Positions 4,603-38,578 of a stretch of 64,000 nt of DNA are shown piece after piece. The stretch is from Armatimonadota bacterium (GTDB lineage Bacteria > Armatimonadota > HRBIN16). Each line of letters begins with the position of its first letter. Position 1 is the first letter of the stretch. The notes beneath the pieces were generated by a model that did not search any database, was not told the origin of the DNA, and saw nothing but the letters and a program-made list of their open reading frames with translations. The stretch covers positions 11,906 through 75,905 of the forward strand of contig JBMFOT010000004.1 of the NCBI GenBank assembly GCA_049969495.1, written 5' to 3'. A program made the position numbers and the translations under genes.

Positions 4603-5409
4603 ATGGGTTCATTGAAGATTGGAGTTGCGCTGTGGTCGCTGTCGGCAGGGGAGACGGAGGAGAGGCTGGTGAACGCTTTGCAGACGGCGGCGGAGCTAGG
4701 TTTTCAGGGAGTGCAGCTGTGGAACGTTGCCAGCTACGGACCCTGTGTGTTAGACCCCGATAACTGCCAGGGCGCGCAGCGTGCTGAGTGGCGCAGGCGG
4801 GTGGAATCGTTCGGGTTGCAAATCAGTGGATTCTGTGCGCAAATGTCCGGTCCCACGCGCTTTGGCGGATTCGATGAGGCGGAGGGCATCGAGGAACGCA
4901 TCGCAAAGACGCAACGGTGTATCGAACTGGCGGTAGACATGGGCTCGCCAATTGTCACGACACACCCGGGCGTTATCCCTGAGCATAAGAGCGACCCTAT
5001 CTACCCCATTATTCGCGGCGCGATAGAGCAGGTAGCCAAACACGCCGAGAAGGTGGGAGGCATCTTCTGCATCGAGACGGGCATGGAGCCTGCGTCCGTG
5101 TTGAGGCAGTTTATTGAGGACATCGGCAGTCCTGCGCTGAGGGTGAACTACGACCCGGCGAACATGCTGTGGTATGGTGTGCTGGAGGGTGTGCGTGAGC
5201 TGGCTCCGTATATCGTGCACACGCACGCCAAAGACCGCCATCCCGATACGGGCAAACCCACCGTCGGGCAAGGGGCGGTGCCGTGGGACGAGTATATCGC
5301 CCTGCTGAAGTCCATTGGTTACGATGGGTGGTATGCGGTGGAAGACGAAAGCGGGCAAGATGTGGTAGAGTCTTTACGGCAGGGGCGAGAGTTTTTGGAA
5401 CGGTATTAA
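4603..5409 (+). CDS. sugar phosphate isomerase/epimerase (xylose-isomerase-like TIM barrel)
   Basis: GVALWSLS...GFQGVQLW...HPG...IETGMEP...YDPANM...HTHAKD motifs of the AP-endonuclease 2 / xylose isomerase-like fold. SD GGAGCAGGAG upstream. Confidence 0.75.
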   Translation: MGSLKIGVALWSLSAGETEERLVNALQTAAELGFQGVQLWNVASYGPCVLDPDNCQGAQRAEWRRRVESFGLQISGFCAQMSGPTRFGGFDEAEGIEERIAKTQRCIELAVDMGSPIVTTHPGVIPEHKSDPIYPIIRGAIEQVAKHAEKVGGIFCIETGMEPASVLRQFIEDIGSPALRVNYDPANMLWYGVLEGVRELAPYIVHTHAKDRHPDTGKPTVGQGAVPWDEYIALLKSIGYDGWYAVEDESGQDVVESLRQGREFLERY

Positions 5410-5412
5410 GCG

Positions 5413-5691
5413 ATGAATCAGAACATACGCTGTCCGAAGTGTGCGGCAGAGGTCAACGATCCCACGCAGCCGTGTCCGCAGTGCGGTTATGTGATCGAGC
5501 ATCCCCAGCGCAAGCGGTACCAGAGGCAGGTGATAGCATCTGGGGTAACGGTATTGCTGGGCTATGCGCTGGGAATGGCAGGCACAGCAACGCGATTGGA
5601 TGTACTGGGCATTACAGGGCTGGCGATGGGTTTTGTAGGTGGAGTGTGGCTGATGGTGTCGCTCTACCTTCTGCTGCGTACAGGGGTATGA
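5413..5691 (+). CDS. zinc-ribbon domain membrane protein
   Basis: CPKC...CPQC double CxxC at the N-terminus, followed by two TM helices. Confidence 0.5.
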   Translation: MNQNIRCPKCAAEVNDPTQPCPQCGYVIEHPQRKRYQRQVIASGVTVLLGYALGMAGTATRLDVLGITGLAMGFVGGVWLMVSLYLLLRTGV

Positions 5692-9796: not shown

Positions 9797-10210
9797 ATGG
9801 CAGCGTTGACGAGCGCGTACGACCCACAGGACAAGCCGGGCGAGCTGGTGAGCTACAAGGTAGGGGCGAACACGGTGATTTATAAAGGCGCGCTGGTGAG
9901 CGTGCGCAGCGATGGCTACGCCTACCCCTCGCGCAGCGGCACCGGTAGCGACGTGTTCGTAGGGGTGGCGTTCGAGAGCGTGGACAACACAGGCGGTGCG
10001 GCGGGCGCGAGGTCGGTGCGCGTGTGGAAGAGCGGCACTTACGTGTACAACGGCAGTGGCTTCACACAGGCGAGCGTGGGGCAAGCGATGTACGCAGCGG
10101 ACGACAACACGCTGACCACCACTTCTACCAACAACCAGCTGGTGGGCTACGTGGTAGAGGTGCTTTCGGCGACGCAGGCACGCATTCGGATCGACAACGC
10201 GGTACGGTAA
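9797..10210 (+). CDS. DUF2190 family phage protein (capsid cement/decoration-like)
   Basis: VFVGVAFESV...GTYVY...LTTT.TNNQLVGYVVEV...ARIRI pattern typical of DUF2190 proteins, which sit between protease and major capsid genes. Confidence 0.55.
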   Translation: MAALTSAYDPQDKPGELVSYKVGANTVIYKGALVSVRSDGYAYPSRSGTGSDVFVGVAFESVDNTGGAAGARSVRVWKSGTYVYNGSGFTQASVGQAMYAADDNTLTTTSTNNQLVGYVVEVLSATQARIRIDNAVR

Positions 10211-26880: not shown

Positions 26881-27969
26881 CTACGCTGCCTTTCTCAGTG
26901 GTTCCCGATCCGGTAGGGAGAAAACGTCATCGTCCGGCGCACTCGTTTTGAATGTGGCTTGCAGGTTTTGTATCACCGTCTGCCACACACCGGTAGGGAT
27001 ACTGAAAAACGCTTTGACCACCTGGGGGTCAAACTGCATGCCGGCGCACCTCTCCAGCTCGGCAAACGCCTCCTCCAGAGAAAGAGCCTTGCGATAGGGG
27101 CGGTCGGAGATCATGGCATCGAGCGCATCCGCGACGGCGAAGAGGCGTGCGCCGAGAGGAATCTCCTCGCCGCGCAACCCTTGTGGGTAGCCGTTGCCAT
27201 CCCACTGCTCATGGTGGCACAGTACCACCTCGCGTGCTGAGTCCTGCAGAGAACGCACCTTCATGCACATTCGATACCCGATAACGGGGTGCTGGCGCAT
27301 GATTTCCCACTCGGCGGCGTTCAGCGGACCGTTTTTGAAGAGAATGCTGTCGGGGATGCCGATTTTGCCCACGTCGTGCAGCAATGCGCCACGCTCGATG
27401 TTGGGATGTTGCTGGTGCGGGACACCCATCGCTTCGGCAAGTATCATCGTGTAGGTGGTAACCCGTTCGCTGTGCCCCTCTATCTCTCGCTCACGTGTCT
27501 CGAGCGCGCTCAGCAGTGCCTCCAGCATGTCGGAATACGCTTCGTTCAGTTTGCATAGATACTGCTTCTGCTCCTCCATCCAGATACTGTGGCGGCGGAT
27601 GTTGCGCTCTATCACGATAGGCAGTTCGTGCGCACGCCACGGCTTGGTGATGAAGTCGCTGGCTCCGCTGTCGAGCACTTCACGCAGCACCTCGATAGAA
27701 TCGTCTCCCGTCATAATGACAATAGGGATTTCGGGGTACTGCTGGCGTATCTGTTTGGCGAGCATTTTGCCTCCCATGCCGGGCATGTGCAGGTCCGACA
27801 GGCATACGTCTACACGCTGCTGTGCCAGTATCTGCAAGGCTTCTTGGCTACTGTACGCTCCGCTCACCATATAGCCATACGAACGCAAGACGCGCTCGAT
27901 GGCTTCAACCACCAGCGGCTCGTCGTCTACAACCAGCACGCGGGATTGAGTTGCAATAGCGCTTTTCAT
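26881..27969 (-). CDS. response regulator with HD-GYP phosphodiesterase output domain
   Basis: REC domain (VLVVDDE...D54-like SDLHMPGMGG...KP). HD...HHE.WDG.GYP motifs. The ATG at 27969 has SD GGGAAG. The longer ORF would run into the repeat array. Confidence 0.8.
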   Translation of the reverse strand: MKSAIATQSRVLVVDDEPLVVEAIERVLRSYGYMVSGAYSSQEALQILAQQRVDVCLSDLHMPGMGGKMLAKQIRQQYPEIPIVIMTGDDSIEVLREVLDSGASDFITKPWRAHELPIVIERNIRRHSIWMEEQKQYLCKLNEAYSDMLEALLSALETREREIEGHSERVTTYTMILAEAMGVPHQQHPNIERGALLHDVGKIGIPDSILFKNGPLNAAEWEIMRQHPVIGYRMCMKVRSLQDSAREVVLCHHEQWDGNGYPQGLRGEEIPLGARLFAVADALDAMISDRPYRKALSLEEAFAELERCAGMQFDPQVVKAFFSIPTGVWQTVIQNLQATFKTSAPDDDVFSLPDREPLRKAA

Positions 27970-27996
27970 TAGACTTCCCATTCGTGATCGAGATAA

Positions 27997-28207
27997 TGAG
28001 ATGTCTCGCTCAGCATGACACAAAACATGCCTTTTCCCTGTCATTCTGAGCGCAAGCGAAGAATCTCAGAGATGCTTCACTGCGTTCAGCATGACAAAGA
28101 GAGCGAGATGCTTCGCTCACGCTCAGCATGACACAAAACAGCTTCTGTTGCACCATAGGTGCAACACTCAACACCCCCCAGCGGCTGCCTCAGCATGACA
28201 ACTTACA
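27997..28207. repeat. array of 4 GCTCAGCATGACA boxes (two forming a 14-bp-arm inverted repeat) plus GAGATGCTTCGCTCA direct repeats
   Basis: Boxes at about 28009, 28085, 28123 and 28190. Inverted partner TGTCATTCTGAGCG at 28039-28052. Confidence 0.6.
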
Positions 28208-28230
28208 TTATCGGAAGACAGACAAATTGT

Positions 28231-28470
28231 TTACAGGGTGTTGCCGAAGCGTTCCACGTACTCCCGTAGCATGACGAGGCAACGTTGCAGGCAGTAGCGT
28301 GTAATCGCTTGCAGGTCAAAGCAACCGTCCAGCGCCGCTTCGCGGATGTTTGGGGGAACCACATCCAGATAAGGCAGGTTCGCAGGGAGAGGAACAAGAA
28401 TACGTTCCGGCATTTTCCACAGACGTACCTGGCTCTCAAATTGCGGAGACCACTGCACAGCAACCTCCAT
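28231..28470 (-). CDS. hypothetical small protein
   Basis: 80-aa ORF starting at MEVAVQW. The longer version would overlap sdhB. Weak support. Confidence 0.25.
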   Translation of the reverse strand: MEVAVQWSPQFESQVRLWKMPERILVPLPANLPYLDVVPPNIREAALDGCFDLQAITRYCLQRCLVMLREYVERFGNTL

Positions 28471-28559
28471 CAGCCACTGTCTGCCGTCGGTAGCGGTATA
28501 GAACTCCTGGTGAGTAACAGAAGCGGGGAGATTTTCTCGTGTTCCCCCCGCTTGCGTGT

Positions 28560-29330
28560 TTACTTCGCCAACCATTTGCGCAGTCGGTTTATGGTGATGT
28601 CGCGGTTCAGCTCGGCGATGGCCCGGGTCAACGGAATCTCTTTCGGGCAGACCTGCACACAGTTCTGGGCGTTGCCACAACCGGTCAACCCATCGGGTCC
28701 TGCCAGCACGTCAAACCGCTCGTCTTCCAGCGTTGCCCCCACAGGGTGCAGGTTGAACAATCTTACCTGCCCCAGCGCGGCGGGCCCGATGAAGTTGGAG
28801 TGTGAGTTCACATTGGGACAGGCTTCCAGACAACATCCACAGGTCATGCATCGGGCGAACTCGTAGCGTAGCTCGCGGATGCTGTCGGGAATGCGCGGAC
28901 CGGGTCCCAGGTCGTGTGTGCCGTCGATAGGAACCCATGCCCGGATGCGCTTGAGCGTCTCGAACATCTCGCTGCGGTCCACGATTAAGTCTCGCACCAC
29001 AGGGAATTTGGTCATGGGCTCCAGGGTGATTTCAAGGTGTTCACCAGCCCGCTTACCCACCTCGTCCACCAGCGCAGAGCACGCCTGGCGTACCCTGCCG
29101 TTAATCACCATGGTGCAGGTGCCGCATACCTCTTCCAGACAAGCGGCTTCCCATGCGGGGGCGGTAGTGGGCTTCCCCTGGCGGGTGACCGGGTTGCGCT
29201 GAATCTGCATCAGGCAGAAGATGACATTCATGCGCGGCTTGTATGGCACTTCGAACTCTTCCCAGTATGGCGCGCTCTGCGGGCTCGCCTGTCGTTTTAT
29301 CTTCAGTACCACGCTCTGGATGCCGTCCAT
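28560..29330 (-). CDS. sdhB: succinate dehydrogenase/fumarate reductase iron-sulfur subunit
   Basis: 2Fe-2S (CGTC), 4Fe-4S (CMTCGCCLEACP) and 3Fe-4S (CGNAQNCVQVCP) cysteine clusters. Confidence 0.85.
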   Translation of the reverse strand: MDGIQSVVLKIKRQASPQSAPYWEEFEVPYKPRMNVIFCLMQIQRNPVTRQGKPTTAPAWEAACLEEVCGTCTMVINGRVRQACSALVDEVGKRAGEHLEITLEPMTKFPVVRDLIVDRSEMFETLKRIRAWVPIDGTHDLGPGPRIPDSIRELRYEFARCMTCGCCLEACPNVNSHSNFIGPAALGQVRLFNLHPVGATLEDERFDVLAGPDGLTGCGNAQNCVQVCPKEIPLTRAIAELNRDITINRLRKWLAK

Positions 29331-37658: not shown

Positions 37659-38578
37659 TCCTTCATCAGTTCCGCCACCTGTTGCACGTCTTTATCCATC
37701 TGCGCCTTCAGCGACTGTAAAGACTCGAACTTCCGTTCGTCGCGCAGGCGGTAAAAGAAGGCGAGGTGTACCTCCTCACCGTACAGACTGCCTGAAAAAC
37801 CCAGCAGGTACGCTTCGATGGTGCGCTTCGTGCCGTCCACAGTAGGGCGCACACCGATGCTGATTGCCGCTGTGTAGCTGTTGCCTGTGCGCGGGTGTAG
37901 TAGTTTTCCCGCGTAGATTCCATCCTTCGGTACCAGCTGGGGCGCGCGCAGGTTCAGGTTTACCGTCGGGTAGCCCAGTTTCCTGCCCAGCTGCTGCCCG
38001 CGCACCACCACACCTTCCAGCACATACGCTCTGCCCAGCATGGCAGATGCCTCCTGCACCTCACCGTCCAGCAGTGCCTGGCGGATTCGGCTACTGCTGA
38101 TGCGCTCGCCACGATACAGCACGTCCGGTACATCCTCTACCTCGAAGCCGAAACGCGCCTGTACCTCCTGTAAATAATCCACACTGCCCATCCGTCGATG
38201 CCCGAAGCGGAAGTCCCTGCCCACCACGATACGACGCGCGTTCAATCGCCGCTGTAGTACCGAGCGCAGGAACGCTTCGGGATGCAGTGCGGAGAAATCA
38301 TGGTCGAAGCGTAACACCAGCACGTCCTGTACCCCGGTCCCCAGCAGCAGGCGCAGGCGGCTGGTCAGGGTGGTTAAATAGGGTGGTGCGTTTTCGGGTT
38401 GGATGGCTTCCTGCGGGTGGCGGTCAAAGGTGACCGCAACGGCAGGGATATGCAGTTCCTGCGCACGCTGGATAGCCACGCGAATAATTGCCTGATGTCC
38501 CCGGTGCACCCCGTCGAAGGAGCCGATGGTCACGACGCTGGCACGCAGGCTCAACGAACGCGGGTCGGAGCCGCTCAC
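37652..38578 (-). CDS. ribF: bifunctional riboflavin kinase / FMN adenylyltransferase
   Basis: GSFDGVHRGHQ nucleotidyltransferase motif. C-terminal riboflavin kinase motifs (GYPTVN, PTVDG...EAYLLGF). Confidence 0.85.
   Translation of the reverse strand: MSGSDPRSLSLRASVVTIGSFDGVHRGHQAIIRVAIQRAQELHIPAVAVTFDRHPQEAIQPENAPPYLTTLTSRLRLLLGTGVQDVLVLRFDHDFSALHPEAFLRSVLQRRLNARRIVVGRDFRFGHRRMGSVDYLQEVQARFGFEVEDVPDVLYRGERISSSRIRQALLDGEVQEASAMLGRAYVLEGVVVRGQQLGRKLGYPTVNLNLRAPQLVPKDGIYAGKLLHPRTGNSYTAAISIGVRPTVDGTKRTIEAYLLGFSGSLYGEEVHLAFFYRLRDERKFESLQSLKAQMDKDVQQVAELMKEW

Follow-up and report, generated by a model that had tools for sequence, protein, structure and literature searches.

The 64,000-nucleotide stretch analysed here, which we call the window, comes from contig JBMFOT010000004.1 of an Armatimonadota bacterium and carries an array of short repeats in the spacer between two minus-strand genes, at positions 27970-28230. 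Downstream of the spacer is a gene for an HD-GYP response regulator (26881-27969, minus strand; Pfam Response_reg, HD_5, and HD). On the other side is a small open reading frame (ORF) of 114 aa with no Pfam family (28231-28575, minus strand), which follows sdhC, sdhA, and sdhB and has a 16-nt overlap with the end of sdhB. In this study, we describe the repeats of this spacer, the hairpin unit of which they are made, and the occurrence of that unit in other genomes.

A sequence-only reading of this DNA had noted four copies of a 13-nt box, GCTCAGCATGACA, upstream of the regulator. The array was borne out, but its number was not: allowing at most one mismatch, we found five copies, four direct (28008-28020, 28084-28096, 28121-28133, and 28188-28200) and one inverted (28039-28051), all within the 193 bp of 28008-28200 and none elsewhere in the window, where the sole further match, at 38033, has two mismatches. 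The count of the bare 13-mer is by itself unremarkable (6 matches in the whole window vs 2.6 expected, a number reached in 7 of 100 shuffles), and what is remarkable is the clustering of the boxes and the full unit to which they belong. A hairpin unit of 28-29 nt has the box as its 3' half, and the pattern GAGATNCTTC-N(4-16)-TCAGNATGAC, with arms GAGATNCTTC...TCAGN'ATGACA, matches the window three times vs 0.00 expected. The inverted repeat with 14-nt arms seen by the earlier reading is present (I2, 28007-28020 / 28039-28052, 93% complementary), and a longer one with 29-nt arms accompanies it (I1, 28039-28067 / 28105-28133, 86% complementary). Its direct repeats, GAGATGCTTC(G/A)CT, were found at 28069 and 28105 (D4), with a degenerate copy at 27998. 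Its palindrome TTGCACC-ATA-GGTGCAA is also there, one base away from where it had been placed, at 28148-28164.

The window contains three full units, one eroded unit (U1), and one half-unit (U5). A covariance model run over the 64 kb found only U4, U3, U2, and U1, the next match having 11.8 bits (E = 0.23). U4 (TGTCATGCTGAGCGTGAGCGAAGCATCTC; 28105-28133, minus strand; 47.9 bits, E 1.7e-13) consists of a 5-bp stem ATGCT/AGCAT, tandem G·A, a GC/GC helix, and a GTGA loop, flanked by a TGTC tag and a CTC tail, and its predicted RNA fold (-12.8 kcal/mol) agrees with the structure supported by covariation. U3 (TGTCATGCTGAACGCAGTGAAGCATCTC; 28069-28096, minus strand; 47.7 bits) has a GCA loop and a compensated change in its inner helix, A-T/C-G replacing G-C/C-G; the same ACGNAGT variant also occurs in 15 of 116 copies elsewhere. 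U2 (TGTCATTCTGAGCGCAAGCGAAGAATCTC; 28039-28067, plus strand; 46.4 bits), which takes part in both I1 and I2, has the stem variant ATTCT/AGAAT and a GCAA loop, and together with U3 it makes an inverted heterodimer with tags outward (HH) and a 1-nt gap. U1 (TGTCATGCTGAGCGAGACATCTC; 27998-28020, minus strand; 15.4 bits, E 0.014), located 28 nt upstream of the regulator start codon, has its central mini-hairpin deleted and its 3' arm mutated. Since both U1 and U4 carry the extra flank ACAAAACA (repeat D2), a local duplication is suggested. U5 (TGTCATGCTGAGG; 28188-28200, minus strand) is a tag-side half-unit recognised from its box match and from the alignment with orthologous spacers. The gaps between the window units are 18, 1, and 8 nt, and their orientations are mixed. 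The palindrome at 28148-28164, with its perfect 7-bp arms, has no relation to the repeat unit; folded as RNA, it forms a longer hairpin of 9 bp (-13.2 kcal/mol, z -4.55), and no copy of it was found among 279 loci.

On its TGTCAT strand, the unit reads TGTC-ATNCT-GA-GC-GNA-GC-GA-AGN'AT-CTC. As a single strand, it has an unpaired 5' (T/C)GTC tag, a hairpin, and a 3' CTC tail; the hairpin comprises an outer 5-bp helix (A-T, T-A, N-N', C-G, T-A), inside it an invariant tandem G·A/A·G mismatch, and innermost a 2-bp helix closed by a GNA or a 4-nt loop (GCGNAGC core). This anatomy was derived from pattern scans of IMG/VR contigs in which each tested position was left free, so that the search itself was unable to create the pairing result. 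N and N' were complementary in 117 of 117 copies (T/A 66, C/G 44, G/C 7), and in 174 of 175 copies of a later scan, where all four Watson-Crick pairs were present. Base-pair covariation was seen at every position of the stem. With the outer stem left free, all five pairs were formed in 102 of 116 copies, whereas 2000 shuffles of the arms gave 56.6 on average and 67 at most. The first pair was A-T in 102 and the second T-A in 101 of these 116 copies, and the stem variants include ATTCT/AGAAT, ATCCT/AGGAT, ACCCT/AGGGT, ATTCC/GGAAT, ATGCT/AGCAT, and GTCCT/AGGAC. For the inner helix pair, we counted 96 copies with G-C, 16 with A-T, and one with T-A.

When the centre was left free in both length and sequence, it measured 7 nt in 65% of 309 copies. 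Two base pairs and a triloop made up 186 of the 202 centres of this length, mostly as GCGNAGC, and the commonest centres among the 309 were GCGCAGC (47), GCGAAGC (46), GCGGAGC (26), and GCGTAGC (14); longer centres, such as GGCGAAGCC and GGGCCGCAGCCC, are likewise self-paired. Most copies thus have a 3-nt loop (GNA), and a minority, U2 and U4 among them, a loop of 4 nt. At the four mismatch positions, GA/GA was found in 75 of 77 copies and a Watson-Crick combination never. Among 175 copies with free flanks, the tag was TGTC in 131 and CGTC in 14, the tail was C-T-C (C 90%, T 72%, C 67%), and the positions beyond tag and tail were random. Judged from these sequence patterns, the unit is a specific, selected structure and not any palindrome. 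The asymmetry between G·T and A·C pairs, which could point to the folded strand, did not discriminate (about 9 vs 9). Hammerhead-like motifs, K-turns, group II intron domain 5, the IncP nic site, and attC were compared with the unit by inspection and rejected since positions that must be conserved in them are absent or covarying.

Comparison with orthologous loci indicates that the array is an addition to this spacer. The closest homologues of the regulator are found in Armatimonadota metagenome-assembled genomes (MAGs), and three of these loci (L277, L278, and L279; regulators 90, 81, and 76% identical) share the order sdhC-sdhA-sdhB-small ORF-regulator. Their spacers are 74-75 bp long, as compared to 261 bp in the window, and the covariance model found no unit in them. 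The spacer alignment places the lineage-specific segment at about 27998-28192, with boundaries that are approximate because the flanks have diverged; it takes up about 195 nt in the window vs about 20 nt in the orthologues, and contains the three full units, the eroded unit, and the unrelated palindrome. Upstream of the array, directly after the stop codon of the small ORF, a block of 30 nt (TTGTC..CCGATAATG.AA; 28201-28230, minus strand) is conserved in all four genomes and may be a -10-like element, albeit a promoter scan did not report this block. On the other side, homology with the orthologues resumes weakly just before the regulator start codon.

The first 8 nt of U5 (TGTCATGC, 28193-28200) align with TGTCATGCGAAG of the repeat-free spacer of L277, the closest orthologue (about 9955-9970), where the array begins in the window, and this L277 sequence resembles the ends of a unit without its middle. 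It may have been similar beforehand and so have favoured insertion, or it may be the scar of an excised unit. If TGTCATGCGAAG is taken as the earlier state, 8 bases of the fourth direct box were already there before insertion, and we speculate that they may have favoured it.

More than 15 named bacterial lineages, as well as phage-like contigs, carry the unit in their intergenic DNA. A genome-collection scan, which covered the G/C stem variant only, returned at least 120 rows. Among the matches listed were some from Bacteroidota (many Hymenobacter, Chryseobacterium, Alistipes, and Dysgonomonas), others from Chloroflexota (several classes), Acidobacteriota, Verrucomicrobiota, Planctomycetota, and Armatimonadota, and further ones from Ignavibacteria, Nitrospinales, Kiritimatiellia, Elusimicrobia, Poribacteria, one genome of the candidate phyla radiation (CPR), and several Desulfobacterota. 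Viral scans of IMG/VR gave from 75 to more than 120 loci each, on contigs that possibly include prophages or misassigned bacterial fragments, and a metagenome scan with a host-specific extended box gave 7 unrelated loci. In total, we collected 577 full-length unit matches in 357 loci. Their gene context was determined with a codon-model gene caller that reproduces the sdh genes and the regulator of the window. Only 51 of 447 non-redundant units (11%) lie inside ORFs, as compared to 82% coding DNA. The spacers of the 447 units were co-directional for 252, convergent for 29, and divergent for 30, which is near the background of spacer types, and in co-directional spacers of bacterial loci 126 units had TGTC-sense and 126 antisense orientation. 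Not counting the copy through which a carrier was ascertained, further arrays occur at about 0.18 per 10 kb, or about one per 55 kb, similar to the one array per 64 kb of the window. Strand consistency within loci (76 of 99 vs 65.7 expected) is inflated because of tandem duplications and was not relied on.

Within 1 kb of the units, neither a transposase nor a nuclease recurred, and the only recurrent protein clusters beside them were phage structural proteins, which reflect the collection searched. BLAST found no match of the array in PLSDB plasmids and none of a consensus dimer in GenBank phages. Full-text literature searches with the box and unit sequences returned PCR primers only, a search for unit-encoded peptides returned nothing, and the RepRanger paper (PMC12306157) held nothing specific to any family. 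In two other MAGs, a second, unrelated short repeat, GGAGCCTCGCCCTCCA, lies beside units (L160, about 5230-5480, and L191, about 2360-2380; SKYG40 and SKYG83), and the spacers concerned are mosaics of several repeat families. A 2.79-Mb metagenome contig, Ga0213875_10000001 (L362, about 1920-2200), carries a sister family, TGTCATCCTGAGCTTGTCGAAGGATGC, which has the outer stem, the tag, and the CTGAGC...CGAAG frame of the unit with a different centre, and which occurs in tandem, intermixed with half-units ending in GCTCAGCATGACA; its sequence suggests a wider superfamily.

Units tend to occur together in a preferred arrangement. Neighbours at most 200 nt apart have their tags outward (HH) in 55 cases, inward (TT) in 6, and in direct order (HT) in 34. 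Heterodimers account for 33 of 53 HH dimers, and the dimer spacers are unrelated in sequence and length, with gaps of 1-84 nt. Of the truncated copies, 37 retain the tag side and 5 the tail side, and tandem reiteration of such copies is frequent; the "box" of the earlier reading is such a tag-side half-unit. The arrays also change between related contigs: two related phage contigs (L011 and L218) differ by the presence or absence of a single unit, and two others (L038 and L014) by an extra half-box reiteration. At an unrelated locus of another Armatimonadota MAG (L154), the direct-direct-inverted trimer of the window recurs with identical stem variants. Several reiterations were seen besides: a five-copy, 87-88-nt tandem repeat of a whole dimer (L039, 8593-8970), five tandem copies of the tag-side half TGTCATCCTGAGCGCAGC with a 20-nt period (L233, 1044-1141), and runs of the hexamer ATGACA adjoining units in L014, L017, and L038. 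Judging from such sequences, the tag end looks like a duplication hot spot.

Our results make it probable that the array is a cluster of a repetitive extragenic palindrome (REP)-type repeat, comparable to a bacterial interspersed mosaic element (BIME) or a Neisseria intergenic mosaic element (NIME), which was inserted in this lineage. Because the unit is dispersed across lineages and the insertion is present in this lineage only, we regard the array as selfish repeat DNA and not as a dedicated operator. The earlier reading had named two observations that together would refute it, namely frequent occurrence of the box at random positions throughout the genome, which would make it a generic REP, and its absence from orthologous promoters. 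This refutation has largely come about. The absence was found in L277, L278, and L279 alike, and as to frequency, the box proved widely dispersed, as seen across other genomes. About 195 bp absent from the three relatives were inserted between the small ORF downstream of sdhCAB and the HD-GYP gene, and in the scenario we favour, the repeat would spread as selfish or near-neutral DNA via a hairpin intermediate recognised in trans, by analogy with REPs and their REP-associated tyrosine transposases (RAYTs). If the HD-GYP gene or sdh mRNA is affected at all, this would be a by-product, as is conceivable from E. coli REPs. A transcript crossing the spacer is predicted to carry about 190 extra nt that fold into a long nested hairpin, and such a hairpin could make the upstream sdh message more stable, or impede read-through or the initiation of regulator translation. 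Enzymes of the HUH/Y1 type read an unpaired tag next to a hairpin in REP/RAYT and IS200/IS605 systems (PMC6006769).

Several findings weigh against this interpretation. In the loci examined, about 3 Mb, no HUH/Y1-type enzyme linked to the unit and no mobilising enzyme was found; two RAYT-like ORFs with the HUH and Y motifs typical of REP-associated tyrosine transposases (L199, 4556-5023, and L219, 1170-1817, both minus strand) have no units within 400 nt. The 64-kb window has one array, and 63 kb of the three relatives gave a single weak match with the covariance model. Neither the window insertion nor the L011/L218 polymorphism showed a clear target-site duplication. With RNA as well as DNA parameters, the nearest-neighbour energy of a single unit does not stand out from shuffles, and the structure therefore rests on covariation, not on predicted stability. 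The unit also departs from the closest published repeats, the CGTC REPs of Di Nocera et al. (2013, PMC3733652): stem positions 6-7 are a tandem G·A/A·G where the published stems are perfect over 8-9 bp, the loop has mostly 3 nt instead of 4-5 nt, the tail is CTC instead of CCA, and HT neighbours, 34 in our collection, are not negligible. Finally, the unit shows a strand bias in viral contigs, where the C-rich strand carries the TGTC reading of the unit in 75 of 96 sequence clusters (75 vs 21).

This bias was determined for IMG/VR loci L001-L093, L214-L276, and L280-L357 with one vote per sequence cluster. Coding and G-rich strand coincide in 68 of 73 clusters of the viral contigs, so that transcription and replication are inseparable as its source. 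Viral solo units, again with one vote per cluster, are GAGAT-sense in 50 cases vs 21, and a peak of GAGAT-sense units lies 10-30 nt upstream of start codons. In bacterial loci, this bias is not seen (72 vs 84). The viral strand bias is the main reason not to dismiss a phage function. That the unit is shared across phyla and phages because a conserved factor, such as a trans-acting single-stranded DNA enzyme, reads it, or because it serves phages, is a doubtful but not negligible idea; if true, a trans-acting enzyme would spread the unit horizontally.

Among other explanations for the array itself, exaptation as RNA deserves the most attention, although we consider it unlikely. Here, the inserted repeat would now act as a 3' stabiliser or partial terminator for sdhCAB and the small ORF, or as a structured leader that lowers translation of, or read-through into, the regulator. 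The setting suits such a role, in that all genes around the array share one strand, with a stop codon on one side of it and a start codon on the other, and weak terminator-like sites occur within it. E. coli REPs are known to make upstream mRNA more stable and to influence translation. When 27960-28235 is folded as sense-strand RNA, a single long nested hairpin results (-106.7 kcal/mol, z -4.67), a fold that the inverted repeats must give. Di Nocera et al. likewise argue that many REPs act as RNA (PMC3733652). However, the relatives manage without the array, and a test for intrinsic terminators found the CTC tail followed by random sequence, no U-tract directly after the strong hairpins, and only weak terminator-like matches inside the array. 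Moreover, because units are oriented evenly in co-directional spacers and convergent spacers are not preferred over divergent ones (29 vs 30), no family-wide selection for a sense-strand RNA role is seen.

The earlier reading had offered a multi-site operator, a small structured RNA, or a miniature inverted-repeat transposable element (MITE) in the promoter region. The last of these was partly right, as the array is a small inserted repeat element, but it is made of REP-type palindromic units. A classical MITE, derived by deletion from a DDE-transposase insertion sequence and having terminal inverted repeats and target-site duplications, would fit the presence/absence polymorphism, and HH dimers resemble short terminal inverted repeats bounding 60-100 bp. 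Yet single 28-nt units occur alone and are what varies by presence or absence, the dimers are mostly heterodimers around unrelated spacers of 1-84 nt, and neither a visible target-site duplication, nor a related transposase nearby, nor a parent element was found, which makes this origin very unlikely. An operator whose boxes bind a transcription factor controlling the HD-GYP regulator, extremely unlikely in our view, would explain why several 13-nt boxes, two of them forming a dyad, lie near the start codon, but not why three relatives have no boxes in their orthologous spacers, which refutes it by the criterion of the earlier reading, nor why the unit recurs in hundreds of unrelated spacers of many phyla and viral contigs; halves of a hairpin with covarying arms, moreover, are not expected for a site that a protein reads as duplex. 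Least probable of all is a small RNA gene or a CRISPR-like array, suggested by repeated structured units in an intergenic region and by the five units with an 87-88-nt period in the viral contig L039. Rfam gave no match at the gathering threshold over the whole window, and for 27700-28500 with E up to 10 only chance-level matches (E of at least 0.1, scores far below gathering); the array is not conserved in the relatives, and the even 126 vs 126 orientation speaks against an RNA as well. The array of L039 is a tandem duplication of an identical dimer with its spacer and has no variable spacers. That the window array is not a CRISPR, as the earlier reading had held, is borne out by the irregular gaps of 1, 8, and 18 nt and the mixed orientations, with cas genes not searched for systematically.

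Reading the array as an inserted REP-type cluster has practical consequences. As inserted repeat DNA missing from relatives, the boxes are no basis for inferring how the HD-GYP gene is regulated, and a tempting false lead to a cyclic di-GMP-related operator is removed. The start of the regulator is a further case. The longest ORF for it (26881-28044) starts inside U2 and would gain 25 residues from repeat DNA, and automatic annotation could over-extend the gene into the array in this way; the true start is the ATG at 27969, as is evident from the orthologues, whose 361-362 aa it fits. A model of the unit would help annotation, since translation of units yields spurious ORFs and artificial N-terminal extensions. 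The small ORF upstream, at whose position a gene of 108-114 aa is called in all three Armatimonadota relatives, looks by this comparison like a real conserved gene attached to the sdhCAB operon. About 9 kb past the 3' end of the regulator, L277 (20296-21089) and L278 (20276-21089) have a Mu-type portal gene (Pfam Portal_Mu), which hints at a prophage. As to the family, a 28-nt element with no known associated enzyme keeps its sequence, its non-canonical G·A pairs, and its unpaired tag from Bacteroidota to Chloroflexota to phage-like contigs.

Compared with known systems, the unit shares with MITEs that it is small, non-autonomous, intergenic, and polymorphic in presence, and differs in that it has no target-site duplication or parent insertion sequence and that its basic form is a single 28-nt hairpin. 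Its structure recalls known motifs: the d(GCGNAGC) DNA mini-hairpin with its GNA triloop, and tandem sheared G·A pairs. The commonest centre of the unit is exactly GCGNAGC, flanked by 5'-GA and 3'-AG on the TGTC strand; these motifs are, however, generic and define no genetic element, and nearest-neighbour models give them no special stability. With GTAG REPs and their doublets (REPINs), the unit has in common a tagged hairpin dispersed between genes, inverted doublets, compensated stem variants, and clusters (BIMEs), and by analogy it plausibly works like the GTAG REP/RAYT system. It differs from them in its tag, TGTC or CGTC instead of GTAG, and in that no RAYT gene is flanked by units; furthermore, GTAG families are mostly species- or genus-specific, whereas the sequence of the unit is common to several phyla.

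The closest likeness is to the CGTC REPs of Di Nocera et al. (2013, PMC3733652). As described there, these repeats have a CGTC tag, often in a TGTC or CCTC variant, an 8-9-bp stem that starts with A-T and T-A, a 4-5-nt loop, and a 3-nt tail with the consensus CCA; HH dimers predominate, those of the TT type are rare, HT ones are negligible, and there is no dedicated transposase. The superfamily includes dRS3 of Neisseria and RPE-4/RPE-6 of Rickettsia, and the paper leaves open what makes and moves the repeats. Our unit matches this description as a short (28-29 nt) extragenic palindrome with a (C/T)GTC tag, first pairs A-T and T-A, about nine stacked positions, and a 3-nt tail starting with C, as well as in its predominance of HH over rare TT dimers, its frequent heterodimers, its clusters, its spread over several phyla, and the lack of a transposase flanked by units. 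Besides the departures in stem, loop, tail, and HT frequency weighed above, it has its own interior, CTGAGC-GNA-GCGAAG, and it occurs in Bacteroidota, Chloroflexota, Acidobacteria, the Planctomycetes-Verrucomicrobia-Chlamydiae (PVC) group, Armatimonadota, and viral contigs, whereas the published families are mostly alphaproteobacterial. The peptides listed there for CGTC-1 to CGTC-4 (VIPAKAGI, VIAGLDPAI, and others) do not fit the unit either, which would read VILSEAKDL. On the basis of its architecture, the unit is filed as a new, previously unnamed family of the CGTC/TGTC-tagged REP kind, absent from Rfam and apparently also from the families listed in that paper, although one of these, for example that of Gramella forsetii, might be identical with it. 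The family offers a larger and more diverse data set for the question that CGTC REPs have raised, namely what makes and moves such repeats.

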